From the NCBI GenBank assembly GCA_009602735.1, contig WELA01002856.1:1-64000 (forward strand): DNA of 64,000 bases, written 5' to 3'. Position numbers and translations under genes: made by a program. Below the pieces are notes generated by a model. That model was not told the DNA's origin. It worked only from the letters and a program-made list of their open reading frames with translations, and searched no databases. The DNA is from Mesotaenium endlicherianum. Taxonomy: Eukaryota. Shown here piece by piece: positions 6,943-32,500 of this stretch (the first letter of the stretch is position 1; the number at the start of each line of letters is the position of its first letter).

Positions 6943-9012
6943 GTGGGCCCGGCTTCCCTCTCCACCCCACCCCATCCCACCCAGCACCCATGTCCTGCTA
7001 CCCCACTGCTTCCTCTGCAAACCTTCACTCGATCAGGTCGGTTGGCTGGCCTGCCTCTCTTTTTGGGCCTGCCTGCCTGCGTGTATGCCCGCCCTGCCTG
7101 TTTAGCTGGCACCCCCCCCATGCAGAAGGCATGCAAAGGGACCGCACATTCCAGAGGGCGCCTTGTCTGGTCCTACTCTCGAGGCCAGCTGGCTTGCTGT
7201 GGTTTGCCCTCCGGTGGTCTGGGCTGAGTGTGACACCCTGGCCCGCTGCCAGCCGTCAGGCATGTAGAGAGAGGCTGAAGAGGCTGACCAGGTGCCGCCC
7301 TCAGGCGATCGCACATGTGCTTGACTCTGGAGTAGATGACCTGATACTCCAGACTTTTTTGAAAAGGCTGAGTGGAAAAAATGTTCAGATTGAGAACAAT
7401 GCTGTAACTACAAAGAAATTAGATTTGACACAAGTAGCCAGCAGAAATACCAGCATATTCCACTTTCTTTTGATAGACTTGAAAACAAGCCGAAAACATT
7501 CTTTCAACTCCCAGTAAGGGGGCATCATGATCACATGTAGTACAATGAAATGTTGTTGAGTGAGTGCTGTTGTCAATACATTGTTGATTAAAGCTAGTCC
7601 AGTCAAGTTTGAAGCTCAGGAGGCAGTAGTAATATTTTGAGTAGTCTTCTGTGGTTGCAATTTTTGTGACAACCGACAAGGTGTAATGCTTAAGCTTTTA
7701 TACCATATGAAATAGCTCTTTAAGAGCTGACGAGTGCACCCCTTCATTCAACGACATGCTACCTACACGTATACGCTTGTCTAAGTGGCACAACGCTTGT
7801 ATATAGGCGTATGGTCTGCTCTACCAAATTTGGTCACACATATCAGACAAGCTTTTTTGGTTTTCAGCATCATACGAAAAACACAAAGAGGGACCTTCAG
7901 ATAGCAAGTCGGCAAACCTATTGTAAATTTGCGTGCAAATGAGCGACTTATCTTAGGCAATATAGGTGCAGCCTAGACAAGAAAGTTGATGTTTGCCCAC
8001 AGAAAGGACTGAGATCCGAACACACAGGCAACAAGGGACTATCTAACAACAACAGTAGCAGCAGGATTCACGTGTCATATTGCTGGCCCAATGGCACGAA
8101 GTGACTGTGTATCAAGCACGTGCTACTGAAGAGGCATCTGGGCAGCATCTGACCACGGCGCAGAATACAACAACAATAATCCACTGTCCTCCCGTCTCCT
8201 ATCCAGTTGTTACTTTCGAGCATACCCAGGGGCATACATATTACCCCCCGGAATATGCTTCTGTGGCTGCAATAGCCATATGAAAGACTCTCTCTCAAGC
8301 ACGATAAGCGGCTGTCTGGGTTAGCGCTTGACTTTTCAAAAGTCGAGAGTGAGCTCCAATACTAATCCTGGTTCATATGAGACGTGGAAATGATGGGCAG
8401 AAAGAACGGTGTGTAAATACCGAACGGCACACTCTCCCTTTGCCTGCCTTGCCTTGCCTATCACAAGGCTTCTACACGGTACTATCGAACTCAACTGTCC
8501 AGTTCTCCTACAACTTTCTGCATAGCAGGCTGCAATTGAACACATTCAGCTAGCTTCCGAGATTATCCTTTCATAACCATTCCACTCCCTTAGCGCTCAA
8601 CGACACTTAGGGCCAGTTTACAGTGGCCAAATCGATGCCGAGTTGATTGATTGAAAAGTACTTCGCTGTACCTTGAAGTACGTTTTCAAATTTAGCGCGA
8701 TGAAACTGGTGTCAAGGCGCGACGCGATTGATTGACGTTTGTGAAGAATTTGATTGAACTTCTGGTTTAAAAAAATCGACCTCGCCTTTTCAATTCTGCT
8801 CTCGAGCAGAATTGAAATTTTGGAATGTGTTCGACCCCTCGAATAACACCTCCTCGACGAGCACTCCATCGACAAGGATTGTCGGTATTAGGTAGGGGAA
8901 TCGAGTGAGGATGTACCCAATGACTACATTCTTTTTTTTGCTACCGATTTCGGTACGACGAGGAGTACAGAAAAAAATAATCGCAAGATGAACGATGCAC
9001 GATGTTAACATA

Positions 9013-10267
9013 TGTCCCGACTAATATCCATTTGACGGTGCCGCACGCGCAGCGCAAGCTACGGCCACCCAGGTACGGAAAGTCAATGTTGACTCACCGA
9101 CCACTTGACTGATTACGTCGCAGTCAGCGGTTATGTCGGCGTCAAGACCACTGGCAAGGGGTCAATGTCAATGTGCCCCACACCCAGGGATGGGGGAGGT
9201 TTTGACAGCATAGACAGCCGCGAGGCTAGAAGCTGGGGATCAATGATGAGCCGCCCAGCAGGTACCAAGTCAGGTACTGTGTGACTGGCAGATTAAACCA
9301 GGTCATGGCCGCATGCCAAGATAGGTTACGGCCGCCCGATTGGGAATCTTGAGCAAGTGGCATTTGCTTGTACACGCCGCTCATGAGTTCTTAGCCATGA
9401 GCCAATTAGGCGTGATTGCCAGCTGAGAAGCTAAGCAGCCACGCGCGACAGTCACGAGGTGTGCATGCATGCCGAGTGACTACGAGCTTGAGTTGAGCAT
9501 GGCTAGGCAGAAGCGACATGCAGCTAAGCTTTGCGACTAAGCACGGCATTCTCGAAAGATGACACTGTGTGGTGCCTGCGAAAGGCACGAATCTTGCCTG
9601 AGGCATGTCATTCACTCTCACGCACTTTTGCCAAGAAGCAGAAGGAGCAGAAGGAGCAGAAGGAAGGAGAAGAAGGGCGCAAAGAAGAAGAAGGAGTTCC
9701 CAAGGCCATTGGAGAGCCGAGGCCCCACGCTTCTGCCGACGCTGAAGATTCTTCTCAGTGTATTATAGATAAGTTAGGATTGTAGGAGTTCCCAAGAGGG
9801 AATCTCACTGTTGAAAGTAAGAAAACTGCAGAATAGAATCTGCTAGGAGATTAGCACAGATTCGGCCGAACGCCACAAGTGTGTGTGAAGCAGCCTTAAA
9901 TTGGTGAGTTGTGTGTTAGTTTCCAAGTTCTCAGAAGTCGCATTCGCATCTCGAAGAGAGAGGGTAGTATTGGCAAATGAAGCTCTCAGTGAAGAACTGA
10001 GTGAGCCTAGCCTGACAGTGAAGAGCTGTTAAGGTGCGGTGTTGAGTGAAGAGCTTGACCCAGGCCAGCATAGACGTGTAGTTTCAAAGTTTTGTAAGTT
10101 GTGACCTTGTGAAAGTTAAGCAAAAGCCTGAAGGGCGATTTTCTTTGAATCTGACATTGTATGTCAAGCTGCTTAGAGTGTGATTTCTGCAAACTACAAT
10201 TTGCTCGCCTGTGAACCCAAGAACCTTGAGGCATAAAGCCTATGTGGAAGTAAGAGACTTCCGTCCT
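9013..10267 (+). repeat. Family A repeat A1 (1255 bp)
   Basis: Colinear with 25987-27241, same length. Confidence 0.95.
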
Positions 10268-10281
10268 ACTTTTGAGAACTT
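10268..10281 (+). promoter_or_regulatory. Putative self-priming primer-binding site, complementary to 9925-9938
   Basis: ACTTTTGAGAACTT pairs 14/14 (one G.U) with AAGTTCTCAGAAGT. It lies immediately 3' of A1 and is conserved in copy 2. Confidence 0.65.
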
Positions 10282-11053
10282 CGGTTCTGTGGTTCAGGTG
10301 AATAGAAATTCCCAAGCAAATTGGGGATTGAGGCCTGTGCGGGCTGCCGGTGCTCACCCTGGAAGGGGACCCGAAGAAATTTGACTGTACATGCGGTTGA
10401 GGAGTCGAACACTCTACTACCCTGTGGAGCCTGCGGAAGGTTCTGATTCAAGCCAGAGTCCACGAGGAAGTGAGACATCTGAGTGCACGGATAACCTGTG
10501 GAGTGAGCAACCGTGTAGTGAAACAGATAGATAAAGTACTTAGTAAAACAGAATAGTTTATCTATTCAAGACAAGGATCTTTGAACACAAGTGGTAGCTT
10601 CTTGAAAGAGAGATGGCTTCTTGAAAGTTAATATATTTCTGGATTTTGGCAAGTACAAGAGTGATTCAGGAATGTCTTTCTATGTTCTAGCTCTTGTTTA
10701 TATACTTGCTACATAAGTAATTTCTAGGAAGGTGTATGTTGATGTGTTGGCACCCAACACATCCCAAAACTTGCCACCTCTTTCTAGAATAATGTACACA
10801 TGTCCTTTTGACCTAAAAATGGCACATCTGACTTTTGCCACATGGAGTTCTTCTAGGTCTTTCCTCTAACTTCGAAAATGCCTTGGAAGGTTCAAAGGAC
10901 ATGAACCAAGTTACTAGAGTACCTATTCACACTTGACTCCACACAATACTACTCCAAATATATTTGAAAACATTAAAATATATGCAAACTAATATATAAT
11001 AACTCAAATCACTACATCACCCCCCCGATAGAAAAAGCGACGTCTCGGCGCGT

Positions 11054-11182
11054 CAAGTCAGGTCTTACACATGTGGAGCAAACTAGTCAACAGTTTCAAG
11101 TCAGATGCCACACATGTGAAGAGGACTAGTCAAAGGCGCCAAGTCAGGTGCTACACATGTAAGGTAGACTAGGCAAGGTCGT
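11054..11182. repeat. Three degenerate ~43-bp tandem repeats in the 3' UTR of element B
   Basis: Unit CAAGTCAG....ACACATGT......ACTAG, three copies. Confidence 0.7.
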
Positions 11183-11785
11183 AGGTGGTGTGACCTTATT
11201 GGCTAGCCTACTCCTTAATGATAAAGAAAATTGTACAAGTTGGCCCAGAATCTGCCACGAACTCAAAAATTCATAGCGGCCACAGAACTGCTCCAAATCT
11301 GAAAATTCGAGTGCCAGACGGACCGCGTCGGAGAACTCTACCGGGTCACCAAATTTGAGAGCATTCTCATTTCTGGAGTGTCGTTGAGAGCTGAGAGAGT
11401 AGGCACTCCTCCAAATCTGTGCAGAAACTTCTGAAAATCATAAGTCCTTCTATACTTCTCCAAATTCTGCAAACTAAGTCTCAAACTGGGCGCTGTAAGA
11501 TGTTCTACCAGAGTCTTGAGTTTCAGAGCATTCCAAGTTCAGGGGAGGGCACAATGTCAGAAGGCATATTCTGCCCTAACAATGCCAGCAGCCTGACCCC
11601 CTTCTACTTAGAGCATCATATCTCTCTCACCAGTGCTCCAAATTGAGCAAACTTGGACTCTAAATGACCGGCTACTCATGGACTACAGCCAGGTAAATTT
11701 TCAGAATTTATTATGCAGAGACCTATTACCAGTAGCAGTTTTAGTTTTCTGTCCAGAAACTGCGAGAAGAGAAGAGTGTCTAATG

Positions 11786-14700
11786 TCAATTTTTCCTCTT
11801 TCTTGTTCTTGCAGGCTGCCTCCAAGGGGTCTTCTGCTGCTTCTTGATGGTGGCAGGCTGCCTCCCTGAAGTCTTCGGGCTTCTAGTAGAGAGACTTGGG
11901 GCTGGTCCAAGATGGGGGTTGGCGGCATGGAAGCGCTTCAACTTTCTCTGAACTTTGTCAAGGTAGTGCGCCGCCACCCAACTATTCTCCGAATCTGGAT
12001 ATCCTTTCCACTTGATCAAGTATTGCTGCTGTCTCCTGAAATTTCTCATAGCCACTATGTCTTCCACTTCGTACTCCAAATGATCATCCACTATTGTTGG
12101 GGCTGGTGGGGTTGTCACACGTCCTGGGAACTTGTTGTCGGGTTGCACATATGGCTTGAAGAGGGAAGCGTGGAATACGGGGTCGATGTGCATAGTCTGG
12201 GGAAGTTCTAGCTTGAAAGCAACGGGGTTGACTTGCTGGATAATCTTGAAGGGTCCCAAATACTTGGGAGAGAACTTGCTGCCGGCAGGCCTGTTGTTCA
12301 GGGAAATGTTCTTGGATGATAGTAACACGTTGTCACCCACTCTGTACGTAATTTCTCTTCTGGATCTGTTCGCCACTCTTGCTTGAGCATCTTGCGCGTG
12401 TTGTAGAGCTTTCTTCGCTGCTGTAAGGGCTGCTTCTAATGTCTCCATAAAATCTGTGGCTGCAGGTACTTCATCATGGCCAGCCGTGAAGCTCAGTGGC
12501 GTGGTCGGATGGAAGCCATAGTTGAGGAAGAATGGGGACTCTTGGGTAGAGGCCTGCGTAGTGTTGTTGTAGGCAAACTCGAGGGGGGTCAAGTACATGT
12601 CCCAGTCTTGCTCGAGGGTAGACACGTAGGCCTTTAGAGAGGTCTTTAGGGTACGATTCATACGCTCGGTTTGCCCATCTGATTGTGGGTGGTAGGCAGT
12701 AGACATATCCAGCGATGTACCCAAGTTCTTGAAGAGATTTTTCCAGAAATGGCTTGTGAATCTTGGATCTCTATCTGACACAATTCTTGATGGTAGTCCA
12801 TGGAGTCGGAAGATGTTGTCAAAGATGAGTCTTGCAAGTTGTGGTGCTGTAGCCTTAGTCGTCGTGGGAATAAAATGAGCCATCTTGGTAAGTCTGTCCA
12901 CCGCCGTGAGTATTGCATTATGGCCTCGAGGTGTCACGGGCAAGTCCACGATAAGGTCCATTGAGATGTCCGTCCATTGTCTTTCGGGGATTGGTAGTGG
13001 TTGGAGGAGTCCTCCCGCCTTTTGCGATGATGGCTTGATTCTTTGGCATGTGTCACAGCTCCTGCAGTACTCCTTGACTTGCTTAGACATGCCTGGCCAA
13101 CAATAAGTCCTAGCTAGAACGCCCGTGGTCCTTAGGATTCCAAAGTGTCCTCCAAGAGGGTTGTCGTGTGCTTCTCGTAGAAGCAAGAGCCGGAGGTCTA
13201 AGTCATTAGGAACACATCTCTGGCCCGTATCTTGCCTCACCCAATAATTGCCTTCTTGCTTCTTGCATGGGTCCAAGGCTGCTTCTCCGTTCTTGTAGTA
13301 AGGGTCTCTTTCATAGGCGGCTGAAAATCGAGCTTCCAGATCTGTCTTCAGGGATACCATCACTGCATTTAATTGCAGTCTTGAGAGGGGGTCAGCCGGG
13401 TTTGTCTTGCCGGGCTGGTACTGAATCGTGATGTTGTATTGTTGCAAGTATCCGCTCCATCTTGCTTGTCTCCTTGAGAGATACGGCTGCGTTTGGAGGT
13501 GCTTTAACGCCTCGTGGTCCGTGGTGACCAGTACTTTGCGTCCTTCAACGTAGCAGCGCCAAACCTTCAAGGCATGTACAATCGCCAATGCCTCTCGCTC
13601 CGTGGTTGTATAATTTTGCTCGGCTGGATTTAGCTTCCTTGACTCGTAGGCGATGGGCTGCAGTCCCTTGCCTTGGTCTTGAAGCAGGATTGCTCCTATT
13701 GCATAGGAAGATGCATCGGTGATGACGTGGAAGGGCCAATCTGGGTTTGGACTTGGGAGTGTGAGCACCGGGGATGTGGTCAATCTTCGCTTTAACTCTT
13801 GAAATGCCTCTTCCTCTTTCTCGGTCCATGTATATAGCCTGTCCTTCTTGAGTAGATCTGTCAGGGGGGCTGCTATGTGCGAGAAGCCTTGGATGAATTT
13901 TCTGTACCAATTGGCAAATCCCAAGAATGACTGGAGTTCTTTCTTGGTCGTGGGGGTTGGCCATTCCTCCACCACCGTGGTCTTCTTGGGGTCTATCTTG
14001 ATGCCATCAGCAGTCACGTGGAGACCTAGGAACTCCACTTCTTGTTTGGCAAACTCGCATTTTGACTCCTTCGCAAACAGCTTGTTTTGCTTCAATACTT
14101 CAAGGACTTCTTTCAAGTGTCTCGCATGCTCTTCAAGGGTCTTGCTGTAGATAAGGATGTCATCGATGAATACCACCACAAATCTGTCCAACATGGGCTG
14201 AAATATGGTGTTCATCATAGTCATGAAAGTTGCTGGCGCGTTGGTGAGTCCAAATGGCAGGACCATGAACTCAAAATGTCCATATCTTGTCCTGAATGCC
14301 GTCTTCTCTATGTCCGGTTCTGCGATGCGAATCTGGTGGTAGCCGCTCCGTAAGTCAATCTTCGTGAAGTACTTGGCTCCAACCAGCCGGTCCATGAGCT
14401 CATCCATGCGCGGCAGCGGGTATCGATTCTTGATGGTGATCTTGTTGAGGGCGCGATAGTCCACACACATCCTCAAGGTACCATCTTTCTTCTTGACAAA
14501 TAGCACCGGGGCTCCAAATGGCGACTTGCTAGGTCGAATGAAGCCATGCTCCAGTAGCTCCTTGATTTGCTTCTTGACTTCGTCTAGCTCCGTGTATGAC
14601 ATTTTGAACGTAGGCCGAGAGATGGGCTTGCTTCCGGGCTCCAACTCTATCTTGTGGTCTACGAATCTTTTGGGGGGTAGGCCCTTGGGCAATTCCGGGG

Positions 14701-15394
14701 AGAACACTTCTTTGTAGTCCTCTAAGACTTCTTGTATCTCCTTGGGAACGGGGCTGCCTTCTTGACTCTCGATGTCTTTCTTGATGTCTTTTGGCGTGAT
14801 CAAGGCCAAAAGAAGCTCGTGTCCCTTCCTCACAAGTCTCTTGAGTTGGAGGGCGGACAATAGTATCTCGTGTGCCGGCTTCTGGATGTCTTGGGTCTGG
14901 ATATTCTGGATTGCGCGCAAAATACAGATTCTTGAAGTGATGTCATTCTTGATCTTGATAGTACCGGTCCTCCAATCAACTTGGGGGTTGTGCTTGGTCA
15001 ACCAAGGCGTCCCTAGGATGACGTCGTACTTGCCCAATTGCATGGGGGAGAACACTACTCTATCCTTGAAGGACTTGATAGAGAGTGCCAAGGGGTACGT
15101 CTTCTTGGAAGGGGTAGTATAGGAGAATCCATCGGGCATCATAATCTCCTCGTCGTGGTCAAGAGTTCGCATAGTAATACCGTGCTTGGTGGCAAAATCT
15201 GCAGCAATGAAGTTGCCTTGAGCTCCGCTATCCACCAAGATGTGGACCTTCTCTCCTCCAAGGTAACCTCTCAAACTCATTGGGGCTGGAACGTCGTCTT
15301 CAACGGGGGTCTCCACCTCACTTGGCGTGTTGCCTTCTCGTGAAGTGGGTCTTGGGGTGGTAGGCTCCTGGCCTACCGGCGCTGTCCGTTTTTT
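11786..15394 (-). CDS. pol: Element B Pol: protease-RT-RNase H-integrase-chromodomain, entered by a -1 frameshift
   Basis: LVDSGA, FIDD, TDAS, HHCC (HDNPLGGH...CDTC), DDE core, GPF motif, chromodomain YEVEDIV...YLIKWKGY. No internal stops. Confidence 0.95.
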
Positions 15395-16653
15395 GACAAC
15401 TTTTTGGGGCATGAAAGTGCACGATGGCCCTTTTCCTTGCAATAAAAGCATAGTCCAGCCGTCATGAGAGCTTCTTTTTCAGCCGGGGAGAGTCTTGCTT
15501 TCACTCCTTGCTGGTTTCTTGCATCATAAGTGTCATTGGAGGGTCTTCCACTCTTCCGGGCAGCCGCGGGGTCCCTTTTAATAACTCCGATTTCCATGGG
15601 TGTGGGTCCAGATTCGGATGTGGAAGGGGCTGCGTACACCCGCGTCGTCGGTACCCGTGAAGATGAAGGCACGGAGTGCTTGAAATCCAAGGTATCCACC
15701 TTTTGGGCCACTTCAATGATCTTTGAGAAGTCCGTCAAGTCGCGTAACTCCACTTCCTTTGCCACCTTGGGTTTGAGGCCAAAGATGTAGCGGTCAATCT
15801 TCTCCTCGAGAGACATGTTGGGGATCTCAAGAGTGAGGGCGTGAAATCTGGATGTATACTCTTGAACGGACGTCGTTTGCTTGAGATGGTGGAGCTTTCC
15901 TCGGGCAATCTTCTCCGCATTGATGGGCATGAATTGCTTCTTGAGGGCCTCACGAAAATCTGCCCATCTTGCATATGATGGTGGGGGCTCTTGGCCGAGC
16001 ATGGGGTGCGCCATAGCTTGATATATAGCCGCTTGATAGTTACGCCACCATGATGTTGCTGCTCCTCTAAGTAAGGTAACGGCAAAGGGAACGTAGTCCT
16101 CCTCGGGTACTTCAAGGAATGCGAGGTACGTCTCCACTTGGTAGAGCCATAAATTCAGGTTGGCACCTTTCCCGGGGTTGAAAGTGTCGGGTTTGCCGGG
16201 CTTGATGAGTTTCCTTGCTCTCGTTGGCTCTTGTGGAGGCGCTTGAGCCGGGGCTGGATTTTGAGCATTGCTCGCAATAGGGGCAACCATGGCAGCCATA
16301 GCTTCTCTTGACGCTTGCACGGTTGCTTCATAGGTGGCCAAGCCCACTTGGTTGTGGACGGTCATTAGGAAGGCTGCCCACTCATTTGCGGGAACTCCTT
16401 GTGGTGGGGTCAACTTTGCTATAGCGGCTGCCACGGGATTTGACGGTGCTCCTCCTTGTGGTGCTTCTTGTTGTTGGAGATTTCCTTGAGTAGGCTCTCC
16501 CATCGACGCTGGAGGAGGGTGTGCTCCTCCTTGTGGTGCTTCTTGTTGTTGCAGATTTTCTTGAGTGGGCTCTCCCATCGGCGCTGGAGGAGGGTGTCTT
16601 GGAGAGGAAGGGCTTCCTTCGAAAGCTTGCTGTTGGTCTTGAGGATCGGCCAT
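15373..16653 (-). CDS. gag: Element B Gag (426 aa)
   Basis: Retrotransposon gag core ([25 protein letters not shown]), PTPMEIG motif and [14 protein letters not shown] knuckle. A 25-aa N-terminal duplication is present. Confidence 0.95.
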
Positions 16654-19600
16654 CTTCTTGTGCTACCAAAGTGCCTAGCTCCGATACCACTGTAGTGAAA
16701 CAGATAGATAAAGTACTTAGTAAAACAGAATACTTTATCTATTCAAGACAAGGATCTTTGAACACAAGTGGTAGCTTCTTGAAAGAGAGATGGCTTCTTG
16801 AAAGTTAATATATTTCTGGATTTTGGCAAGTACAAGAGTGATTCTGGAATGTCTTTCTATGTTCTAGCTCTTGTTTATATACTTGCTACATAAGTAATTT
16901 CTAGGAAGGTGTATGTTGATGTGTTGGCACCCAACACATCCCAAAACTTGCCACCTCTTTCTAGAATAATGTACACATGTCCTTTTGACCTAAAAATGGC
17001 ACATCTGACTTTTGCCACATGGAGTTCTTCTAGGTCTTTCCTCTAACTTCGAAAATGCCTTGAAAGGTTCAAAGGACATGAACCAAGTTACTAGAGTACC
17101 TATTCACACTTGACTCCACACCATACTACTTCAAATATATTTGAAAACATTAAAATATATGCAAACTAATGTATAATAACTCAAATCACTACAAACCGTC
17201 AGGAGACGAGTCTCGCCATATTGCCACGTACGGTGAGAATCCGTATGACGCGCAAGCCTTTGTACCCAATTTGGGCAGAGAGCACGACGTGTGGGGTAAA
17301 GTTAGTGAGTCTTGGTCACCATTCGAAATGACTGGTGATGATAAGGATGAAAATCCTAAGTTCAAGCTGTCTACAAAGTGTTTTAGTGGACAAACCGGTG
17401 AAAATAGTTTCACTGTCAAAGAGTTTGATGAGATCTATTGGGCTGATTTCTTTGAGAGAATTCGAAAGGATTCTTCTTACACTCAGTCAGTCCCTTTTAT
17501 AAGCTTGGTTCATTACTTGGACAAGGATGCCTTGTTGCTTTATCGCCAATTCCGGAAGGATGAGAACCTTACCCAGGAATGGGCGTTTGACAAGCAAAAG
17601 AAGGCGAGGGATTTAAAAATCCAGAAAGAGGCTGCAAAAGCCTGCTTGTCCGCTTTGTCATCAGGAAGAGCGAAACCTGCTGCACCTATTGAGAGCGTAG
17701 ACTTAGTTGCACTAACACAAGAATTAACAGATGCCATGAGGCAACTCACCGAGGGTCAGCAGCGAGCGGCTACTCGAGATGATGATGCTGGGTCTGTTGC
17801 AGAATTGCGTAAAGTGTGTGCAGAATTGTCTGAAAAGATTGCTAATGCTCAGGAACGAGTAACGCGCAGGGCTGCACCTTTTACAGGGCAGCATGGTGAT
17901 AGTGCCACCACGGAAGCAAGCCATGCGCAAGCGTTGGCTAGTTGCCGTAGGGATATGGAGGCTGGAGATGACCAGTTAGACTCTGAGCACTGTCTGCGTC
18001 GTTTTTTTAAGTTGCTTGAAGCAAAATTCCCAGAGGATTGCAGTCTTAAGATGCACCGTTATGTGCATTTTGTCCGTCAGAAGAACGAGAGAGTGATGGA
18101 GGTCAAATCCAGATTGGTAGACCTTGCCAAGAAGGCAGGAATCTATGAGCCTAGGATTGTGGCTGACAAATTCTTATTGTGTTTGGGTAAAGACACAGAT
18201 TGGGAGGTCAGGCCGCATCTATCTGCGAAACGCGGAATCGACTGGAACATCGACGAGGCTGCTGAAATAGCACGCAATGTCTAGGAAGGTAAAGTCTGGT
18301 ACAAGGAGGCTTCCAGGACGCTTATGGCTCCTGAGAAAAAGGAGGAATCTTTTCAACCTAAGGTCAATAGCTCTAATTTCCAGTTCAAGAAGAAGAGCGG
18401 GTCTTTCAATAGGTTTGCTAAGCACGCCAACACTGTTGAGACCGCAGAGGGCTGTTGGAATTGCGGGAAATGGGGACATCAGAAGAGAGATTGTCTGTAC
18501 CCGGATGCTAAGCAATTGTCTGCTAGCAAGGCGCAGGTATGCGCACATTGCAGCAAAAAGGGACACTCAGAAGATGAGTGTTGGTCCAAGAACCCAAATC
18601 TGAAGCCACCATGGGCTAATGCTGCCACGAAAGAGGCAGATAAGGGTAAGTAAAAGGAGAAATGTAACTCTGGTGACCGAAAGGGTAACCAAAAGTATGA
18701 TGCTATGAGTGCAGAGATTGCAGAGTTGAAAGCTCTATTCGCAAGACTAAATGTCCCCAATGTCTATTATGATGCAGATGTGGCCGAAAAGACCGTCTGC
18801 AAAGGCGAGAAGCTGACGCCTGAGAAGGCCGTGACTGCAACGGCTGCGGAGCGCGCAGATCATGACCGTCTGGTTCCAAGGAATGCTGGGAAGCTTCCTC
18901 AGACCTTTCGGATCACTCTCGATAAGAACGAGATTGCGCGGCTACGACAAGCCAAGCCTGGGCCACGCAAGACATTTAGTTTTTTGCTGGAGATAATGAA
19001 GGCTCTGGTGGAACACCGGATTCAGCACATTCCTTGTCTTTCACTCGCTGATCTGCGTCTTACGTACCCTTTCACGGTTGAAGAAGCCGGACAGCAGCTG
19101 GACATAGCTGAGGAAGGCGCGAACGGCGCTTCGCTGCCTACTAATTTCAGCACTGTGAGAGTGCAGAACAAGGATAGAGTTTTGACATTCAACGACTGGG
19201 CCGCTCCCAATATCCTATTGGACACTAGCGCACAGCCAGTAAACTTGGGAAAGCGAGCTGTGAAAGCTCTGGGATTGACGGCAAGGGACCTGAACGAAAG
19301 TCCTTTTCAGTTGAGGACTGCATCTGGGCAGATTTCAAAATCTGTGGAATTACCCGCAAGCTTGTGAAAATCACAGTAAACTTGGGGAAACCTGAGGAGG
19401 CGTCACTGCTCATAGAATGCACGGTGACAGAGGCAGAGAACTATGATGTCCTTCCGGGGACAGAAGCCCTGATTCCCCTGGGTATGGTCATCGACCTGCG
19501 GAAGCAGAGGGTGACTTACCAGTCGACAGATTGGCAGCCGATAGGAAAAAATCCTGTAAAAATGGTTTGCTCGGGAGAGGCAAACTACGGATTGCTAGAC

Positions 19601-19798
19601 TGTTGTGTGAATGACCGGTATCCAGACCATTATGACCTCATCATGCAACGCGAAGAGGAGGGCTACACCAGCGTCAACATGCTGACTTCTTTGGTTTGGC
19701 AACCTCGGATTATGGAGCAACTGGAAGCTGTGAGTAACAGGGACCGTGGCTTGCAAGAGCTGCTGCCAGTTCCCTATCCAATTAAGTCTGTTGCCAAA

Positions 19799-20530
19799 GT
19801 TGACTGGATCTTTGCGGGATTCCCTTGTCAACCTTTCTCGCAAGCTGGGAACAGGAGGGGATTCAATGACCTGCGAGCACAACACTCGGGATGGATGGTG
19901 AAAATCATCAGTATGCTGCGGGAACGCCAGCATCTCTACCCACCAGTGTTTGTGATTGAGAATGTACGTCCAGGGATGGATTACAACCAGATGAAGCCAG
20001 GAGATCCATGGCTGGTCTTCGACTCCACCCTGGGTCATCATGTATTGATCAACGACGCCAGGCACGGAGGAGTCTCACACCGGGCCAGACTATTCTGGAC
20101 CAACGGCATGTCCATTGAAGTCCTGAGGGAGATGGAGGAGATTACGCGGCGCTCACCAACAACAGTATCTGTGGGAGAAGCACTGATGGTGGAAACCAAG
20201 CCAGTGATCAGGAGGGATTCCTACCCACAGTACGTCGTCAACGAGCCAGGCCGGCCCAGGGTGGTGCTGCCCACCTTCACGGCATACCCAGGATTACGCG
20301 CATTCGTGAATGGAGGACCAGGTTTGGTTAAGAATGCGCACGACAGAGAAGCTCAGTGGAGAGAGCCGACAGCTGAAGAGAAGGGAAGGTGCCTGGGGGT
20401 ACCCAACTCCATTGCACAAGAAATTGTTGCGATGGTGGGACAGGACAACGCTGGGAAGATATTCGGCAATATGATTGGGCATCACTCCATGACGTGGTTG
20501 ATGGAGACGATTATGACTTGGCAGCAGATG
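19799..20530 (+). pseudogene. C5 cytosine DNA methyltransferase domain within the family A polyprotein (copy 1; motifs I-III deleted)
   Basis: Motif IV AGFPCQPFSQAG, motif VI VIENV, motif VIII HRARLFW, motif IX-like REPTAEEKGRCLGVP and motif X-like KIFGN, in canonical order. Confidence 0.9.
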
Positions 20531-22599
20531 ACATTCTCTGACAAGTCTATGCCCAGGCCGAGACCGGTAACGATTGGAGTCCATGTGGTGCCAAACTCTG
20601 ATCAGAGAGCTATCAGGGAAGCGCATCAGCGACAAGAAGAATATGGTGTTGAAAGGGACGCAGCTGAGGCTGACCAAGGTGAAGCACTCAGAGAAACCAG
20701 AGTGGCGGAGCTGACCAGGTGTCAAGACCTACTGGCGCGAATTGACAATCGGATGACGGCTCTACAAGACCCTCTGGAAAGAGAGCTGCAAAGGCTGCGC
20801 GAAGACGTAGCCATGGAAGACCAGGCAACTGGTGAAGCAAACCCTTTGGAGAGCGCTGCAGCAAGCAAATCACAGGAGATCCCATTATCTGCAGAACGCT
20901 CCAGCCAAATATTTGTGAGGATGCCGGAAGGGGAGGAAGAGACCACTTCTGAGTTACGGAACATGGCCCAAGACCATGTCTTCGGAAGCCCATCCCCAAA
21001 CGCGGCAACGTCAAGATATGAAGAACGCCAGTGCAATATTGGCGAATGGGCCGAAGAATGGTCAGAATTCAGGAAATTCTGGAGGGTCTGGAAAGACCAT
21101 TTGCCTGGAGGTGATCTTTGAAGAACGCAGGAAGGAGACGAACGAGAGATTGCGCGCCACACCTGTTCTGATGAGCCCAGAGCCAGAGGCCAAAGGGCAA
21201 CCACAAGACGCAGTTGGCAGCACAGCTGAGTCGATCACCAGGCAAATCATGGAGCAGTTGCTGGAAGCAGACGCCCTTCGACTCAGAGAAGAGAAAGTGG
21301 CGAAAGCAGCTCGCGCTCTACAGTCAGCCATCATCAACATGGGGAGGCTCAAAGCAGGAGGGGATGAAGAATCGCCGCCTCCTGGAACAGAGAAGCGGGA
21401 GGAGGGAGAGGATGCAGAGATGCAAGGCCTCCCAGAGTTTGAGTTGCCATCACTCAACAATAGAGGGGAAGCTAGAGAAGAAATTCCACGTTTTCCCACG
21501 CCACAGTTGGATCAGCTTGACTTGCAGGAGTTGAGGACAGACGACTGGGTTGCTGACCACCTGATGGGGCCAAGCCCGGCAGACCTTTATGAAGAACTAA
21601 GGTCACCAACATCCAGTACCCCTACTGCCAGTCTTTCAGTGGCAGAGCCCAAGTCAACCGCACGACCGCCGCAATGGCAGGAGGTGACTGCCTGCACTGC
21701 TAAAGTGGAGACAGCGCAAGGTAAGCCCAAGGGTCGCGCAAGCAGACCAAGGAAGGTGGCCCGTGAGGGTAACGCATCTTTTAGGAGGATGCTAAAGCGA
21801 TATTTCAAGCATAAGGGGAAGGCTCAGAGAGAGGGCGTTCCGCGAGGAACCACAACCCCACCTCCTCCTCCTCTGCGGGATATTGTGCAGAGAGAGGGAG
21901 AGGACGGCTTGATTCGCAGGGCAATGGCATTGGGCATTAGTGTGCCGCCAGGCATTAACACGCCCTTGTTGCAACTATCAGATCTTAGGATGTCGAGGCC
22001 GGAGGCACTTGCTCCCATGACACCTGCAATCCCAGAATGGGAACTGATGGATCTGAGAAACACCATGAGCCGCTTGACCGCAGCAGATGATGTTTTCCTC
22101 GCACAACTAGCGACATCTCAAAGGCCGCAAACGTTGGCGCAGGCATGGACGGTCACACCACCCGCAAGGGAGGAGTATGGCACGACCGTCGCCCGCATGG
22201 CTGTTATTGAGCGAGAGTGGGGCTGGGTAATCAGCCCTAGGACAGGTCCTGCAGGTTGGCCAGTGGCAAACCAACCTCGGCCACGTGAAGAAGGAGGAAC
22301 CGAGACCAGTTGGACTGCAGTCGACGAAGAAAAGTTCCTAAGGCAACCCATCCGGAGGCGCCTGACGTACACCTCACAACAGGAGAGGCGACGCGTCATT
22401 GGGAAAGGTAAAAAGCCTAGGAAGCAGGCTGCAGAGCCTATCGCAACGGAGGAGCAAGCTGCAAAGCTTGCTACTCCACCTCCTAAGAATCAAGCAGAAA
22501 AGCTCGAGAGCCAGAATCAGGCAGAAAGCCTGAGGGCCAGGATGAGGGCGAAAAGCCCCCACCTGCACCCAAGGAGTTGCAACTACTGGATGCCTTTGT

Positions 22600-25500
22600 T
22601 GGGGAGAAGCAACCTGAAACTGAGACTTTTGCCATTTGGGAAAATGGTCTCAGCCCAGCATAGAGCACAAGTAGAAAGGTTGCTGAAGAAACACCGCAAG
22701 GTGTTTGCTTTTACTAAGGAGGAGATTGGTAGAACCACTGCCAGTGTGTGTGAGTTCACACTAACTACTGATAACCCAGTCAGACTTGGGCCGCATAAGC
22801 TCACTCAGACAGAATGGGACTGTGTGGAGAAAACTAGCGAAGAGCTGCATAAGCTCCGCATGATTGAAAAATCTACCTCAGTGCATGGGGCTCCCACAGT
22901 AGTAGTCGCTAAAAAGGACGAGGCCGGCAATTACACTGCCACTCGTATGTGTGGAGATTACAGGCGACTGAATCTGTACACGGAGCCAGACAGCTATGTG
23001 ATGCCTACGTCGGAGCGGATCTTTGCAATTGCCACCACCGGGAAGGTGTTCAGCATCATCGATCTGCGCCAAGGCTTCAACCAAATCCCTGTGAAAACAG
23101 AAGATCAAGGTAAGACCGCTTTCTGGGCTCAAAGGGAACTTTGGCAATGGACAGTAATGCCATTTGGGCTGAAAAATGCCCCAGCCATATTTCAGAGGAC
23201 TATGGATAAAGTGCTGGAAGGGCTGGATTTTGCTAAGCCATACATTGACGATGTGGTAGTATTCAGCAAGTCCATAGAGGAGCACCTCGAGCACTTCGAA
23301 CAAGTGTTCCAGCGCCTGGAAAATTTCCAGATGAAGCTGCATCCTGGGAAGTGCAGATTCTTTGAGGCACACGTGCCTTACCTAGGACATGAGATTGGGA
23401 AAATGCTATGTCCCCTCAGGCTGAGAAGACTGAGGCTATTTACAAGATACTTGCACCTGCAAATGTGTCTAAGCTGAAAGCTCTGTTAGGGCTAAGCGGA
23501 TACTATCGTAAGTTTGTGACGGATTATAGCAGAATTGCTAAACCCCTGACGGAACTCCTGAAAAAGGATGTGCCTTTTGTGTGGACAGAAGCTCAGGAGA
23601 AAGCCATGAACGAGCTTAAGGAGCGACTGGTTACAGCCCCAGTCTTGCGAACGCCTGACTACTCCAAGCCGTTCAATCTGCACACTGACTGGAGTCGTGT
23701 AGGAATTGGCGCAGTGCTCACTCAGGCCGCAAGCCCTGGAGAGGAGTATGCCATTGCCTATGCCTCACGCTCTAACAATCGAGCGGAGAGCAACTACTCT
23801 TCCTACGAAGGAGAGCTGCTGGCAGTGGTTTGGGCAGTCACACACTTCAGAGAGTATCTGTGGAGAAGACCCTTCACGCTGATCACGGATCACTCACCAT
23901 TACTATGGCTGATGAAGAATGGAGACCTCACTGGTAAGTTGGCTCGCTGGGCTCTTAAGCTGCAAGAGTACCAAATGACGGTGGTGCACAGAGCAGGAGT
24001 GCTCAACAACGACGCCAATGGACTCAGCAAGAACCCAGACCCATCTTCAGACGACAGAACAGGAGCTCGAGACAACGAAGACCCGAGCAGCCCAGCAGAG
24101 TTGGTGGCCTGCCTAGCCAAAATGGCTGGAATGGTAGCATCAGGTTAAGTTGAGCCTCTACCCCTGTTCAGTCCGAAGATCTGGAAAGATCAAGCTACTA
24201 TGCACTGGCTGAAGACGGGAACTCACTTGGAAGTGCTATCAGTGAAGGAGAAGGACCAGGTAAGCCATCGAGCTAAATGGTTTTGCTGGAAACGCAACAA
24301 CCTCTTCAAAATTGAAGAAATTGGTCAGGAGAAGTTAGTGCCAGAACCGATCAGGAGACGAGCTCTTGTGCAGGAAATGCACGAGAACACTGGACACTAT
24401 GGTGTCAAAAAGACGTATAGTCTTTTGGAGCTGTCTTATTGGTGGAGGGGCATGAAGCAGCAGTGTGAAGATGTGATCAAGGCCTGCCAAAGCTGTGATC
24501 GCGTCAAGGCTGGTTTTACATAGCAACATCCACACTTGCAACCTTTGCCAATCATGGGCCTAGGCTACCGCTGGAGCTGCGATCTCGCAGGTGAGCTACC
24601 GCTGTCTAAGCGAGGTAACAAGTATATCATGGTCATGATTGAGCATTTCTCTAAGTGGATAGAGGTCGTGCCTCTGACTGCTAAGGAGAGTCTAGGGACC
24701 GCGGAAGCACTCCTCGATGGTGTGATTGTGCGTCATGGAGCTCCAGCAAAAGTGCTGACAGACCAAGGGTCTGAGTTCCAAGGGTCTTTTCAGAAACTCT
24801 TGGATAGATGCTTCATTGATCATCGCACTACGTCTAGAGATCATCCGCAAGCAGATGGTTTGGCAGAAAGGATGGTGCAAACCGTTAAGTCTGCTTTGCG
24901 CAAGTTTTGCCTTGAGCATGACAAGCGTGATTGGGATCTGGCCCTGCCATGGTTGGTTATGGGTTACAGATTTAGCAAGCAGGCTGCCTTGGGGAATTAC
25001 TCGCCATATCAGATACTGCTTGGCAGAAGTCCAGTAGTGCCCAGCAGCATCAAGCAGGAGATTGAACAGGTGAAAGTCCTGGACAGCCCTGATGAACCGC
25101 TAAAGGTGATGGTACGTCGTAAGGCGTTATTTGAGCGCATGATGCCGGCTGCGCTGGACAATCTGAAAATTGCGCAGAAAAGAGATACGCAGCGTTACGC
25201 CAGGACGCGAGACGGGAGCTACCGCCTGCAGATGACGCACATTCAAGAAGGAGACTTCGTCTACCGCAAGCCCCAGACCAAGACCACCATCGACACCAGT
25301 TCAAGTGCAGTGATCTTACGCGTGAAACATGCGTTTGACAATGGTGTGTTAGAACTGGAAGGTTCTGATGGTAAGACCATGAGAGACCTCGTGCAGAATT
25401 GCACGCTATGCCATTTGCCGAATATTGATCCTACGGTTAGGATTGCGCCCGAGGAATTGGTGCCAGCCACGCCTTGTGCCAGCTGCAAAGTGCTGGATGA

Positions 25501-25675
25501 TCAGGAAGCAATGGTAACTTGCGATAAGTGTGGTGCCCGTTGGCACACTTTCTGCATTGGCGAGGAAGAGATTATGGCAGGACGATGGGTATGTCCTGAC
25601 TGCCTTCCTAAAACCCCTAGCCGCAGGGTTGGAAATAGCTTTCAGCAGAAAAGGCAGGGACGCCTCAGCAGCTGA
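22600..25675 (+). pseudogene. pol: Family A RT-RNase H-integrase-PHD finger, with frameshifts and stops
   Basis: RMCGDYRRLN, MPFGLKNAP, YIDD; RNase H LHTDWS; HENTGH...CQSC; DDE core (CDLAG, TDQG, LAERMV). C4HC3 PHD finger at 25475-25603. Confidence 0.92.
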
Positions 25676-25685
25676 AAGGGAGGGG

Positions 25686-25984
25686 TATAAGAGGAATTAA
25701 GGCAAAGCAAATATTTTCAAAATTTTCTGCTAAGTCTTAGGATGAGCAGATGGTGAGAGCTGGGTGAAGGAGAACATTGCTCTGAGTGTTGGTCATGGTT
25801 GCATGGTGTCAGGAGCCCAGGGATGGGTCAACCTTGGTGAGGCTTGTCACCGACACACGTGCGAAGGTTGATCGACCATGTTGGCCCACACGTGAGGAGG
25901 GCCACCGACACATCGACCAGGTCGAAGGCACACGTGCGGGAAGGCTACGCACGTGCCGAGGGACCGACACTGTTAGGCACGACA
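25686..25984 (+). repeat. Family A repeat B1 (299 bp), directly after the PPT
   Basis: About 95% identical to 27242-27545 and ends GCACGACA. Confidence 0.95.
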
Positions 25985-25986
25985 GC

Positions 25987-27241
25987 TGTCGCAAGTACTA
26001 TCCGTTTGACGGTGCCGCACGCGCAGCGCAAGCTACGGCCACCCAGGTACGAAATGTCAACGTTGACTCACCGACCACTTGATTGATTACGTCGCAGTCA
26101 GCGGTTATGTCGGCGTCAAGACCACTGGCAAGGGGTCAATGTCGATGTGCCCCACACTCAGGGATGGGGGAGGTTTTGGCAGCATAGACAGCCGCGAGGC
26201 TGGAAGCTGGGAATCAGTGATGAGTCGTCCAGCAGGTACCAAGTCAGGAATTGTGTGACTGGCAGATTAAACCAGGTCATGGCCGCATGCCAAGATTGGT
26301 TACGGCCGCCCGGTTGGAAATCTTGAGCAAGTGGCATTTGATTGTACACGCCGCTCAGGAGTTCTTAGCCATGAGCCAATTAGGCGTGACTGCCAGCTGA
26401 GAAGCTAAGCAGCCACGCGCGACAGCCACTAGGTGTGCATGCAAGCGGAGTGACTACGAGCTTGAGTTGAGCATGGCTAGGCAGAAGCGACATGCAGCTA
26501 AGCTTTGTGACTAAGCACGGCATTCTCGAAAGATGACGCTGTGTGGTGCCTGCGAAAGGCACGAATCTTGCCTGAGGCATGTCATTCACTCTCACGCACT
26601 TTTGCCAAGAAGCAGAAGGAGCAGAAGGAGCAGAAGGAAGGAGAAGAAGGGCGCAAAGAAGAAGAAGGAGTTCCCAAGGCCATTGGAGAGCCGAGGCCCC
26701 ACGCTTCTGCCGACGCTGAAGATTCTTCTCAGTGTATTATAGATAAGTTAGGATTGTAGGAGTTCCCAAGAGGGAATCTCACTGTTGAAAGTAAGAAAAC
26801 TGCAGAATAGAATCTGCTAGGAGATTAGCACAGATTCGGCCGAACGCCACAAGTGTGTGTGAAGCAGCCTTAAAATGGTGAGTTGTGTGTTAGTTTCCAA
26901 GTTCTCAGAAGTCGCATTCGCATCTCGAAGAGAGAGAGTAGTATTGGCAAATAAAGCTCTCAGTGAAGAACTGAGTGAGCCTAGCCTGACAGTGAAGAGC
27001 TGTTAAGGCGCGGTGTTGAGTGAAGAGCTTGACCCAGGCCAGCATAGACGTGTAGTTTCAAAGTTTTGTAAGCTGTGACCTTGTGAAAGTTAAGCAAAAG
27101 CCTGAAGGGCGATTTTCTTTGAATCTGACGTTGTATGTCAAGCTGCTTAGAGTGTGATTTCTGCAAACTACAATTTGCTCGCCTGTGAACCCAAGAACCT
27201 TGAGGCATAAAGCCTATGTGGAAGTAAGAGACTTCCGTCCT
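25987..27241 (+). repeat. Family A repeat A2
   Basis: Direct repeat of 9013-10267. Confidence 0.95.
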
Positions 27242-27545
27242 TATGAGAGGAATTAAGGCAAGGCAAGTATTTTTAAAATCTTCTGCTAAGTCTTAGGATG
27301 AGCAGATGGTGAGAGCTGGGTGAAGGAGAACATTGCTCTGAGTGTTGGTCATGGTTGCATGGTGCAAGTTCAGGAGCCCAGGGATAGGTCAACCTTGGTA
27401 AGGCTTGTCACCGACACACGTGCAAAGGTCAATCGACCATGTTCGCCCACACGTGAGGAGGGCCACCGACACATCGATCGGGTCGAAGGCACACGTGCTG
27501 GAAGGCTACGCACGTGCCGAGGGACCGACACTGTTAGGCACGACA
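27242..27545 (+). repeat. Family A repeat B2 (terminal, 304 bp)
   Basis: Direct repeat of 25686-25984 with a 5-bp indel. Ends GACA. Confidence 0.95.
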
Positions 27546-30500
27546 TTGATTGAAGTTGGTAAAAACATTGATTTAACTTCGTGGTTTCAATCAATTGAAC
27601 TCGGATTTTCAAACCTGCTCTCGAGGTTTGAAATCCTGAGATGTATTTGAACTAGTTCTAATCCTCGAATGACCCCTCCTCGCCGATCACTCGATCGACA
27701 AGGACTGTTGGTATTAGGCAGGGGATTCAAATAAGGTTGTCCTCGTGGAGTACTTTCTGTTTTTTGGCAACGATTTCGGGACGGCAAGGAGTAGACGAAG
27801 CGCGACATCGTGTGGAGGGAATTTGACAACTCCGCTCAATCAATTTTGTGCCTGTGCACTGTCAACGCTGTTTTGTTTAGCTGTTTGAAACTTGGTCGTC
27901 TATTTTGTCTTCGTCGCTTCGATCTCGTAAAATTCCGCAATTCGCGTTGATCAATTGAGTGCCTGTGGCCACTGTAAACCGGGCCTTAGTGTATGTAAGT
28001 CTATCAAGGGACTCAAACAACGTCAGTCTCTGGTCGACCTTGTCAATCACTTCAACTCATATGTGCACATGTCTGCACATATCTGCACATGTGTCACGAC
28101 TGCCAACCACTGGACGGTGCCACACGCTCAACGCAAGTCACGGTCGACCAGGTACGGAAAGTCAGCATTGACTCATCGACCAAAGGACTGAGTTATCTCA
28201 GTCAGCGGTTATGTCAAAGTCGTTGTCACTGTCAAAGTGGTCACGACACGTCAAACCCCACACCCAGGGATGGATGGGGATTTGGACGAAGTAGTCAGCC
28301 GAAAAGCTAGAGGTCTGGAACCAGCAATGAGCCAGCCCAACAAGTGCCAAGAAAGGTGCTGACCAATTGGCTGCCTAAGCCAAGTACAGCGGGGTGTTGC
28401 AGAGGCGTCGTGTGCCACCTCGGCCAAGACCCTCAAGTGACTAGGCACGGCTTGAGCGTTCATCTCAAACGCTGCCAGCCGCCAGCCACATAGGCATGAT
28501 TGCCAGCTGAAAGGCTAAGCAGTCCCGCGCAACAGTCGCAAGGCATGCATGCATACTCGGTGACAACTTCAAACCTGTTTGAAGGCTGCTAGGTAAGGAC
28601 AGCATGCAAAGCTAAGCGCTGTGACTAAGCACTGGCTTTCTCGGGATGAAAGGGGGAAGGGTGCGAGGAGTGCGCCCATACACACTCACGCACCCTCACC
28701 CGCGAGTGGAAGCGTGCACGAGGACCTTTCCTAGTTGCATACACAAGGTGGAGTGGCCTGGTGGTATGCCACCCTTGCAAGAGTTAGAGGACTACATGAG
28801 AGAGGAGTGGAAGAGAACTCACTTTAATAAGAAAAGTCGTGTACAAGATAAGAAGGTTAGACTGACTAACTAGACTAGACTTCCTCCACTTCTTTTTGCT
28901 TCCCATTTATGCCTCAATTCTACGTGTCCTCTCTAGCAAAGTACCTCCAGAACCTTCTACTATGGCTCCTTCCATGTAGGCGACCTTGCCTAGTTAGACA
29001 AGCTAGCACACTCACACACACAATCACGTTCTAGAATATTCTACTACACAATCCACTAACTCCTCACGGAGTTTCTAAAATTTCCACAATCACTTTGGCA
29101 CTCTACGTAATCATACATAATTTCTGGAACCCTCATAATTCAATGTCTTACTTTCTGGACTCCAATCGAAATTTTCGTCACTGGACCTGTCCTTGTCACT
29201 AAATTGTGACTGTGACACTAAAAACTCACCAAAAACTCCCAAAATTCATAATTTTTTGAATACTTGTCCAATGACTTGAAATACAGGCCAAAGTTCTTCT
29301 AAAATCACACTGTATGCATATAAAATGCTAGAAAGATACAAACTACACTTTGATAACCTTACATCATCCCCCTCCTCAAGATGCGACGTCCTCGGTGCAT
29401 ACTAAGCATAAGTGACGTCATATGAGGAATCGAGCTCACATATACGCTAGATAACACACATACACATTTATTATACAAGTTGCAGGTCTTGAACAGGCTC
29501 CAGGATGATACTCATTACTCCAAACTTGCTCCACTTAGTGAAAGCTCCATCGCATACATTGGCTCCCCACATAGCGTCTCCTAACACAAGTGCATCTTCT
29601 CTTCAACTCCTTTGTCTTGGAATAGGCCAATATCTCCATAAGGGCTGTAACATACTCCCTCCATCATCTTCACATACTCCAAAGCTGGATCCAAGGCATA
29701 ATAGTCTGCCATATCGCCAAAATACTCATTCTTCGCCCCCTTGGACAAGTGGCAACTCTTCGTCACGCCATGTGGCTTACTGAAATGAATCAACTTACCA
29801 AATAGGCGATTAACAATTAATAAATATCTTTATATCAGCAAGTAATCTTTATGGTAATTTCCGTTAACTGGTTAAACGGCAAATGACAACACACTAGCAG
29901 TGAATAATACTCGTAAGTCAAATGCGAGTAAACTAGCATCAATAATGCAAATCAGTAAACTCATACATAAGCAAGGTTAGAAGACAGTGCATATCAATGG
30001 TTTCTCGCCTTGGATTCAGATCGCTCTCAGTAAGCTGTACAAGAGAGTTGGCCTCGTTTCCGAATGCCAAACTCGAGAGCAATGCCTAGCATATGTACAT
30101 GGAATGAGTTGACTGTTCAACGGTCAGTGCCATGGCACCGCCTACCCGGGAGTTAACCACGCTGGTAGGACCTCGGTTAACCAAATCCACCGCCATCTCC
30201 CATCATCCCGAATCGCCATCCATCATAGGGATGTCATGTGGCCATTCATCTAGCATACCACACTTAGATGCATATCGAGGCAGTTCGCTGCTACCGAGTA
30301 CGGAAGTCAGCTGGCTGTCAAAGAATGTGTCAGCAAGCTGACTTAAGCTGACACCAGCCTGCTACTTCCGGCTGAGTCATTAAACTGATATTAAATATAA
30401 AGTCCAGCAGACTGACCATTAACTAGAGTTCAGCAGGCTGAACTTATTTCACTATATTATTTAAATGAATATCATATCAACCAATATACTGATTCATTAC

Positions 30501-32248: not shown

Positions 32249-32500
32249 CCTGCTCAATCATAAACACAATGCAGTCAGTGAAGTCATGATATTATGCCGC
32301 TACTGAGTGCCCTTGATAAAGAGGAACGTGATCGGGAGAGTTCCTAGTGTGGAATACCTGGTGTGAGTGAATATAAGGGAAAATTGAGTTAGAGAGCAAA
32401 TGAGTGTGAGCGCAGGTTGAGTGTGTGATATGGTGATCAGAGAATACCACTCCCTCCTTAATTTTAAAGGTGGGCTGCCTGCCACAACTATCACTAACTG

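Follow-up and report, generated by a model that had tools for sequence, protein, structure and literature searches.

A decayed Ty3/Gypsy element of Mesotaenium endlicherianum with the remnant of a DNMT3-like methyltransferase and permuted terminal repeats

Architecture and decay of the locus

The window analysed here is a stretch of 64,000 nucleotides from Mesotaenium endlicherianum (assembly GCA_009602735.1, contig WELA01002856.1, positions 1 to 64,000). It contains a decayed Ty3/Gypsy element at 9013-27545 (copy 1), which is of the already published KnitGypsy-Dnmt3 kind, and part of a second one (copy 2). The domains of the element follow the order gag-protease-DNMT-spacer-RT-RNase H-integrase-PHD (Table 1), and the succession of protease, reverse transcriptase (RT), RNase H and DDE integrase detected with Pfam is the one that defines Ty3/Gypsy elements. 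A tyrosine recombinase, the hallmark of DIRS, PAT and Ngaro elements, found no Pfam match in the long ORFs of the element, where a DDE integrase is present instead. The canonical LTR form is absent: the ends are arranged as A-internal-B-A-B and not as two complete, like LTRs. The active-site triad of the copy 1 protease reads DTS.

Copy 1 carries four in-frame stops across gag and pol as well as indels relative to other copies at 19342, 21060, 22524, 22635 and 23401, and its methyltransferase is out of frame both with the N-terminal half of the protease and with RT. Judged by its reading frames, the polyprotein would not be translatable and the locus is dead. RNA run X23, of which about 6% was read, reached a depth of at most 0.7 over 17654-26246, the coding region being almost bare.

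The chromovirus nested in the leader is about 6.7 kb long and has LTRs of 503 bp with 98.8% identity; its empty site is present in runs X1 and X6. Within 11382-13026, spliced reads of run X23 (GT..AG) skip 11689-11812 and 11960-12464, with about 190 reads each. The depth over the 3' part of the nested chromovirus amounts to 60-100, and first mates map to the minus strand. If the library is of the usual stranded type, this may be a spliced transcript antisense to the integrase-chromodomain end, for which another copy of the family is a possible source.

In copy 2, gag is largely deleted, the methyltransferase is interrupted by a stop (TAA) at 63215 just ahead of motif IV, and FSCP replaces FPCQ. 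Its repeat A is split at 28644-61146 by at least four stacked Gypsy-type LTR elements, several with chromodomain-like ends; two of them have an extra ORF in common (30644-32257, minus strand; 52496-53212, plus strand). On the sequence as it stands, neither copy 1 nor copy 2 would be able to make the enzyme. Apart from the transposons, the window holds an ANP32-like host gene on a long branch; the ANP32-like proteins of land plants themselves are mostly 56-71% identical between major groups. A short exon-like stretch at 6830-6942 may derive from a membrane-bound lysophospholipid acyltransferase, which is how it reads.

Table 1 Features of the window and the observations on which their assignment rests.
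Feature	Position	Strand	Remarks
ANP32-like host gene, long first exon	2020-4347	-	50-57% identical to land-plant proteins
Repeat A1, left end of copy 1, starts TGTC	9013-10267	+	96.9% identity to A2 over 1260 nt
TATA-like box (inferred), 29 nt upstream of predicted transcription start	9896-9901	+	kept in A2 and copy 2
Predicted RNA 5' end and self-primer	9925-9938	+	14/14 pairs (one G:U) with 10268-10281
Putative primer-binding site, adjoins A1	10268-10281	+	differs from TGG-type tRNA site of nested element
Nested chromovirus (ordinary LTR Gypsy) in leader	10514-17193	-	5-bp target duplication AACCG; Pfam domains
gag region (zinc knuckles) and N-terminal half of protease	17199-19228	+	in-frame stops 18282, 18651
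C-terminal half of protease and linker, in frame with methyltransferase	19229-19797	+	aligned to protease ends of relatives
Joint of 318-nt in-frame deletion (motifs I-III gone)	19797-19802	+	short microhomology
DNMT3-like C5 methyltransferase, motifs IV-X only	19799-20540	+	PF00145; family profile nearest DNMT3A/B; model pLDDT 85.3
Catalytic Cys codon of GFPCQPFS	19826-19828
ENV	19958-19966
HRAR	20078-20089
Motif IX-like block	20363-20398
Motif X-like block	20450-20482
Long spacer, ~690 codons, frameshift near 21060	20541-22600	+	no Pfam match
Reverse transcriptase (YIDD) and RNase H, frameshift near 23401	22601-24148	+	PF00078, PF17917
DDE integrase (D, D-35-E kept) and C-terminal PHD finger	24149-25675	+	PF00665, PF00628; stops 24146, 24521
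Polypurine tract, adjoins B1	25674-25685	+
Repeat B1, final letters GACA	25686-25984	+	93.8% identity to B2
B1/A2 joint CA-GC-TG in 12-bp palindrome; predicted integrase site	25980-25991	.
Repeat A2	25987-27241	+
Repeat B2, right end of copy 1, final letters GACA	27242-27545	+	no target duplication with left flank
Repeat A of copy 2, interrupted by ~32 kb of nested LTR elements	28092-61850	+	A parts ~28092-28643, 61147-61850
Putative primer-binding site, copy 2	61851-61864	+	14/14 pairs (two G:U) with 61514-61527
Methyltransferase of copy 2, runs into window end	62804-64000	+	motif I ELFAGLGSG 62972-62998; motif II present

The methyltransferase domain and its class

The original prediction placed a C5 cytosine methyltransferase in one ORF with the C-terminal end of the protease. 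Indeed, GFPCQPFS, ENV, RxR and the blocks resembling motifs IX and X lie together with the C-terminal half of the protease in one frame free of stops (19229-21121), and PF00145, the profile that had been proposed for verification, matched copy 1 with an E-value of 1.4e-12 (48 bits, cut-off 22) and copy 2 with 2.1e-11. The Pfam match in copy 1 spans only about 60 residues. Alignment of the two copies revealed a point that had been overlooked: copy 1 lacks, in frame, 318 nt that copy 2 has at about 62892-63209, and this deletion took out the SAM-binding motif I along with motifs II-III. No FxGxG-like motif was found elsewhere in the ORF of copy 1 or in the following ORF. A permuted domain of the DRM type was considered and rejected, since neither ORF holds a permuted motif I. 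The deletion is not a trait of the family, because seven contigs of run X1 continue past 19797 with letters resembling the stretch kept in copy 2. As it stands, the copy 1 domain would be unable to bind SAM and would not be a working enzyme. The proposal that the enzyme is packaged with Pol is not supported for this very locus, which is predicted neither to bind SAM nor to be translated as a polyprotein.

A profile built from 20 family sequences lies closest to DNMT3A (2.6e-27), followed by DRM (4e-15), M.HhaI (4e-13) and DNMT2 (6e-9). The structure model of the copy 2 domain (pLDDT 85.7) found its best structural matches in DNMT3B and DNMT3A, with a target-normalised TM of 0.77-0.80 among the top ten. 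By profile and predicted fold, the domain is thus DNMT3-like, and its motif order is unpermuted.

A large family of methyltransferase-bearing Gypsy elements

Searching the copy 2 domain against 1.84 billion protein representatives (50% clustering) yielded 373 representatives at E <= 0.001 and 152 at 1e-10. It took an exhaustive search to find them; a word-based search among longer proteins returned no match. DNMT-bearing retrotransposons had been described in the original prediction as known but rare. They are known, from Klebsormidium nitens (PMC5890265), and with 373 representatives at this threshold they are less rare than stated. The best 150 of the 373 are 23-35% identical to the copy 2 domain and homologous to it over its full length. 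Adding four cluster members and the two window proteins gave 156 proteins, in 95 of which the domain lies beside matches to protease, RT, RNase H, integrase or PHD, while it stands alone in the other 61. Two domain orders occur: either protease-DNMT-RT, as in the window, or DNMT between RNase H and integrase. The domain follows RT or RNase H in 62 of the 156 proteins, and in most of the long ones among these it immediately precedes the integrase. Most long relatives also have a PHD finger. In P0282 and P0010 the DNMT3-like domain resides inside a Gypsy polyprotein encoded by a single ORF, with a much shorter spacer before RT. Some relatives of the post-RNase H type (P0030, P0152, P0155) contain a G-patch between methyltransferase and integrase. 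Named members include four Closterium proteins (DNMT after protease), a protein of Scenedesmus sp. PABB004 (post-RNase H) and GAQ93235.1 of K. nitens, which has the order zinc knuckle-protease-DNMT and ends right after the domain. For a Mesostigma protein, only the DNMT domain was detected. The viral contigs scanned contained no relative.

At the family level, the residues expected of a C5 methyltransferase are present, namely the catalytic Cys (motif IV), the Glu (motif VI) and Arg-x-Arg (motif VIII), together with motifs IX and X. In an alignment of 132 domains, invariance extends to the catalytic Cys (129/129 relatives with a residue at this position), the Glu (130/130), the first Arg (130/130) and the Gly of motif I (119/119). 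Both window copies retain the catalytic C, E and R and deviate, in motifs IX and X, at several positions that are near-invariant in the family. For the single pair formed by copies 1 and 2, the dN/dS test that had been suggested gave 0.18 over 259 codons. The domain has been under purifying selection (Ka/Ks < 0.2) though both copies are now dead.

Related loci were collected from metagenomes with an alignment of the integrase, because selection on the methyltransferase domain itself was to be avoided; a DNA scan with the latter was moreover precluded by the divergence of its alignment. Of 366 confirmed integrase matches, the best 80 formed 49 clusters at 96% identity, 23 of which were evaluable, i.e. 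long enough and holding RT. Among these best-80 loci, the domain occupies the expected place in 15 of the 23 evaluable clusters, preceding RT in 12 and following RNase H in 3. By the rule used, it is missing from the remaining eight; most of these have been altered by large deletions, inversions or insertions, and in two a DNMT lies further upstream. The low-GC loci stem from peat moss: a kinase on L059 is identical to KAH9541452.1 of Sphagnum magellanicum, and L052, a locus with DNMT-RT-RNase H-integrase, also holds a gene that groups with Sphagnum proteins.

A tree of the domain (132 rows, FastTree) and one of RT-RNase H (58 rows) show the same split by domain order, with the window on the pre-RT side. 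In a quick IQ-TREE run under a mixture model (41 rows, one host DNMT3 as outgroup), the pre-RT rows come out as an unresolved grade, with a long branch leading to the window pair. The window and K. nitens rows fall on the same side of the split marked 98 in FastTree and belong to a polytomy under the mixture model.

The claim that the domain is integral to the family is borne out by its occurrence at the same place in copy 2, as seen both in the alignment and with Pfam, by the dN/dS value and by the integrase-selected clusters; absence from most members, which would have spoken for a foreign origin, was not observed. That the methyltransferase is an unrelated insertion into the element, or a chance motif match, is extremely improbable. 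The short Pfam span in copy 1 and the eight evaluable clusters without the domain could be read that way, and are outweighed by full-length homology to 150 proteins, the shared position in copy 2, the dN/dS value and the congruent trees, the more so as most of the eight clusters are rearranged and two have the DNMT upstream.

Structure of the ends

Copy 1 is composed of A1, internal region, B1, GC, A2 and B2, starts with TGTC and finishes with GACA. Purine tract, primer site and A/B joint coincide at the same bases in the window, i.e. the A2/B2 joint is located exactly where the two priming sites cut. The 14 nt that follow A1 pair fully with 9925-9938, and the same applies to copy 2; 1 of 1000 shuffles reached either score. 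Pairing was found in both window copies and in five of seven moss-type 5' ends, for which the A ends were chosen by hand (0-2 of 400 shuffles), and failed in the other two. Primer sequences differ between families though the pairing persists. L057 and L007 have clear TATA boxes at a like distance from the predicted start.

Downstream of the integrase, 16 distinct clusters, each inspected in one locus from the best 80 of 366, show the arrangement B-A-B. Counted by eye, the B/A joint of 15 of these 16 related loci conforms to A(C/T)A-RY-T(G/A)T, and 13 of 16 have a clear G tract before B1. The A/B joint lies within a few bases of the primer site and purine tract in two other sequence families as well. 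As for the 12-bp palindrome at B1/A2, the window holds 17 palindromes of that length or more, and it is the location of this one that counts, not its existence. In ten further clusters (L002, L009, L010, L029, L032, L034, L039, L056, L064 and L077), the element ends after a single B, at about the point where B2 would end. Such ends may have arisen from recombination between B1 and B2 or, equally, from integration of one-LTR circles.

Copy 1 lacks a target duplication, and one was found in one of two complete elements (L054, a 4-bp AT-rich match). A hairpin-rich repeat (8720-8967 and 27546-27793; 74% alike) precedes repeat A of both copies and directly follows B2 of copy 1. In run X1 this repeat occurs in multiple copies, and neither Rfam nor a tRNA scan gave a match anywhere in the window, the repeat included. 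It may represent a preferred target or the reason for the missing target duplication.

A proposed route of replication and integration

In LTR retrotransposons, the purine tract sets the left end of the cDNA and the primer site its right end. Applied to the purine tract and primer site of this element, this logic leads to a cDNA of the form B-A-internal-B-A, of which the genomic form is a circular permutation. TG and CA do not lie at the ends of this cDNA but inside it, at B/A. We propose that the RNA would start near 9925 and that its first 14 bases would pair with the site after A1 to start reverse transcription in the manner of Tf1, where the first bases of the RNA are described to pair with the primer site just after the 5' repeat (PMC7175516). 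Plus-strand priming at the purine tract would then give linear B-A-internal-B-A, and ligation of its ends into a circle would create the A/B joint. The DDE integrase would open this circle at the palindromic CA-GC-TG of the B/A joint with a 2-nt stagger, which would leave two CA-3' ends of the normal kind and account for the permuted form A-internal-B-A-B. Cleavage of a palindromic joint between two LTRs has been reported for the integrase of foamy virus (PMC1180852). Self-priming followed by circle opening is the simplest reading of the ends, and we consider it reasonably probable that the element self-primes, is ligated and integrates from a two-LTR circle cut at the B/A joint, a route that would be unusual for its class.

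Three observations count against the circle. The A-B-A-internal-B form that it predicts was seen at none of eight 5' ends inspected, three of which are of poor quality, being eroded, doubtful or located at the edge of a contig; copy 1 is without target duplication; and the single-B ends are ambiguous. The absence of the A-B-A-internal-B form suits another course of events, in which no circle is ligated, the RNA spans A1 to B2, the A/B joint is copied from the template and the integrase uses the linear product. This resembles the route proposed for split-repeat elements of the DIRS type, with which the layout of the element agrees. It would leave aside that the A/B joint sits exactly at the primer-site end of A and the purine-tract start of B in the window and no more than a few bases from these sites in two other families, and that it is the internal B/A joint, and not the so-defined cDNA ends, that offers TG and CA. 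We regard this linear course as possible at best. If the element does integrate from a circle, it departs from the rule for LTR elements, whose integration substrate is linear cDNA.

Possible role of the enzyme

The stretch at 19799-20540 is probably what remains, from motif IV to motif X, of a DNMT3-like enzyme in a decayed polyprotein of the KnitGypsy-Dnmt3 kind, and in intact members this enzyme is likely packaged, set free by the protease and active on newly made double-stranded cDNA. It would be synthesized as part of the polyprotein, released by the protease and thus meet the double-stranded intermediate. CG methylation of this intermediate is the role that we prefer, because, by analogy, DNMT3 domains borne by DIRS elements are active, SymbioDIRS-Dnmt3 being reported to methylate CG in yeast (PMC5890265). 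Perhaps, and this is the weakest of our inferences, the methylated extrachromosomal DNA could pass as host DNA or arrive pre-silenced. If true, this would offer a reason why a transposon keeps an enzyme that normally silences it.

A footprint of self-methylation was not apparent in copy 1. Its CpG observed/expected ratio is 0.62, compared with 0.55-0.61 in three young neighbouring chromoviruses; two older chromoviruses reach 0.31-0.38. Nor was there any extra loss of CHG relative to the neighbours. The lack of CpG loss would fit a domain that binds DNA or chromatin with weak or no catalytic activity and, together with the PHD finger present in most long relatives, steers integration. The deviations of the subfamily in motifs IX and X would fit it too, as would the K. 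nitens domain, which did not methylate in yeast in an experiment that its authors call inconclusive (PMC5890265). A mere binder would have no need for the catalytic Cys, Glu and Arg and the motif I Gly, which are invariant in 119-130 relatives, and the related domains of DIRS elements are active. A purely binding function is therefore improbable.

Another option is an active enzyme that methylates the host target site or the integrated copy and not free cDNA. The fold is that of a de novo methyltransferase of the DNMT3 type, and in the relatives in which the domain follows RT or RNase H, mostly just before the integrase in long proteins, it could stay on the integration complex. In the window, K. 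nitens and Closterium, the DNMT follows the protease instead and is far from the integrase. We hold this option to be unlikely, though less so than the binder.

Methylation of the cDNA can be connected with the circle in a further, tentative reading. An ancient clade spread through green plants, from algae to peat moss, might have moved its integrase site into the middle of the repeat, making self-priming, circularisation and opening at a built-in palindrome its way of integrating, much as for the circle of an insertion sequence, and the DNMT3-like domain, in either of its two positions, might methylate this obligate circle. Methylation would then possibly decide which of two CG-flanked sites is cut, or shield the chromosomal site. 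Should this apply, methyltransferases would be an adaptation shared by circle-forming retroelements, i.e. DIRS and the present clade.

Comparison with known systems

The locus is a dead further example of a published type of methyltransferase-bearing Gypsy element. What is added are relatives in Closterium, Sphagnum and Scenedesmus, the two domain orders and a testable model for the ends. The kind thereby turns out to be a large clade that reaches land plants and chlorophytes and is kept under selection in both domain orders. A survey of the literature, with subscription papers, Repbase and theses outside its coverage, found only PMC5890265 to describe such Gypsy elements, and within the same coverage no account of priming or integration for any DNMT-bearing Gypsy element. 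According to the part of PMC6338049 available to us, land plants such as tracheophytes lack DNMT-bearing elements; the Sphagnum loci show a DNMT-bearing Gypsy element in a moss.

KnitGypsy-Dnmt3 of Klebsormidium nitens is described as having Gypsy domains, DIRS-type repeats and signs of purifying selection (de Mendoza et al. 2018, PMC5890265). The window element shares with it the DDE-integrase Gypsy set, the DNMT3-like domain within the polyprotein, split repeats and purifying selection, and GAQ93235.1 has the same order of knuckle, protease and DNMT. It differs in that its domain is less than 30% identical and occupies a long branch of its own, that a long spacer precedes RT and that the copy is dead. 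The accessible text on KnitGypsy-Dnmt3 names neither a PHD finger nor the mode of priming nor the route of integration (PMC5890265). SymbioDIRS-Dnmt3 of Symbiodinium, according to the same source, likewise combines a DNMT3-type domain in Pol with repeats of the form A-coding-B-A-B (PMC5890265). In contrast to the window element, which has no recombinase match and a Gypsy-type RT, it integrates by means of a tyrosine recombinase.

In Tf1/sushi elements, as in the predicted priming of the window element, the RNA start is reported to be complementary to the primer site after the 5' repeat (PMC7175516). Tf1, with its ordinary LTRs and a primer of 11 bases, lacks a methyltransferase; the window element has permuted ends and a predicted primer of 14 bases. 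Gypsy-7a_cRei and other PHD-bearing Gypsy elements of Chlamydomonas are also green-algal and carry the PHD finger in the polyprotein; unlike the window element, they have a near-complete LTR pair, and the available description names no methyltransferase (PMC9940879). The natural single-ORF relatives identified here are ready material for the methylation assay that was inconclusive in 2018.

The circle junctions of IS3-family elements are a parallel for cutting the joint of a circle, as a DDE enzyme there acts on the palindromic joint of two circle ends. The same holds for foamy virus integrase (PMC1180852). In these systems, the joint originates from ligated ends, whereas the site predicted for the window element is built into the repeat, away from the ends of the cDNA.
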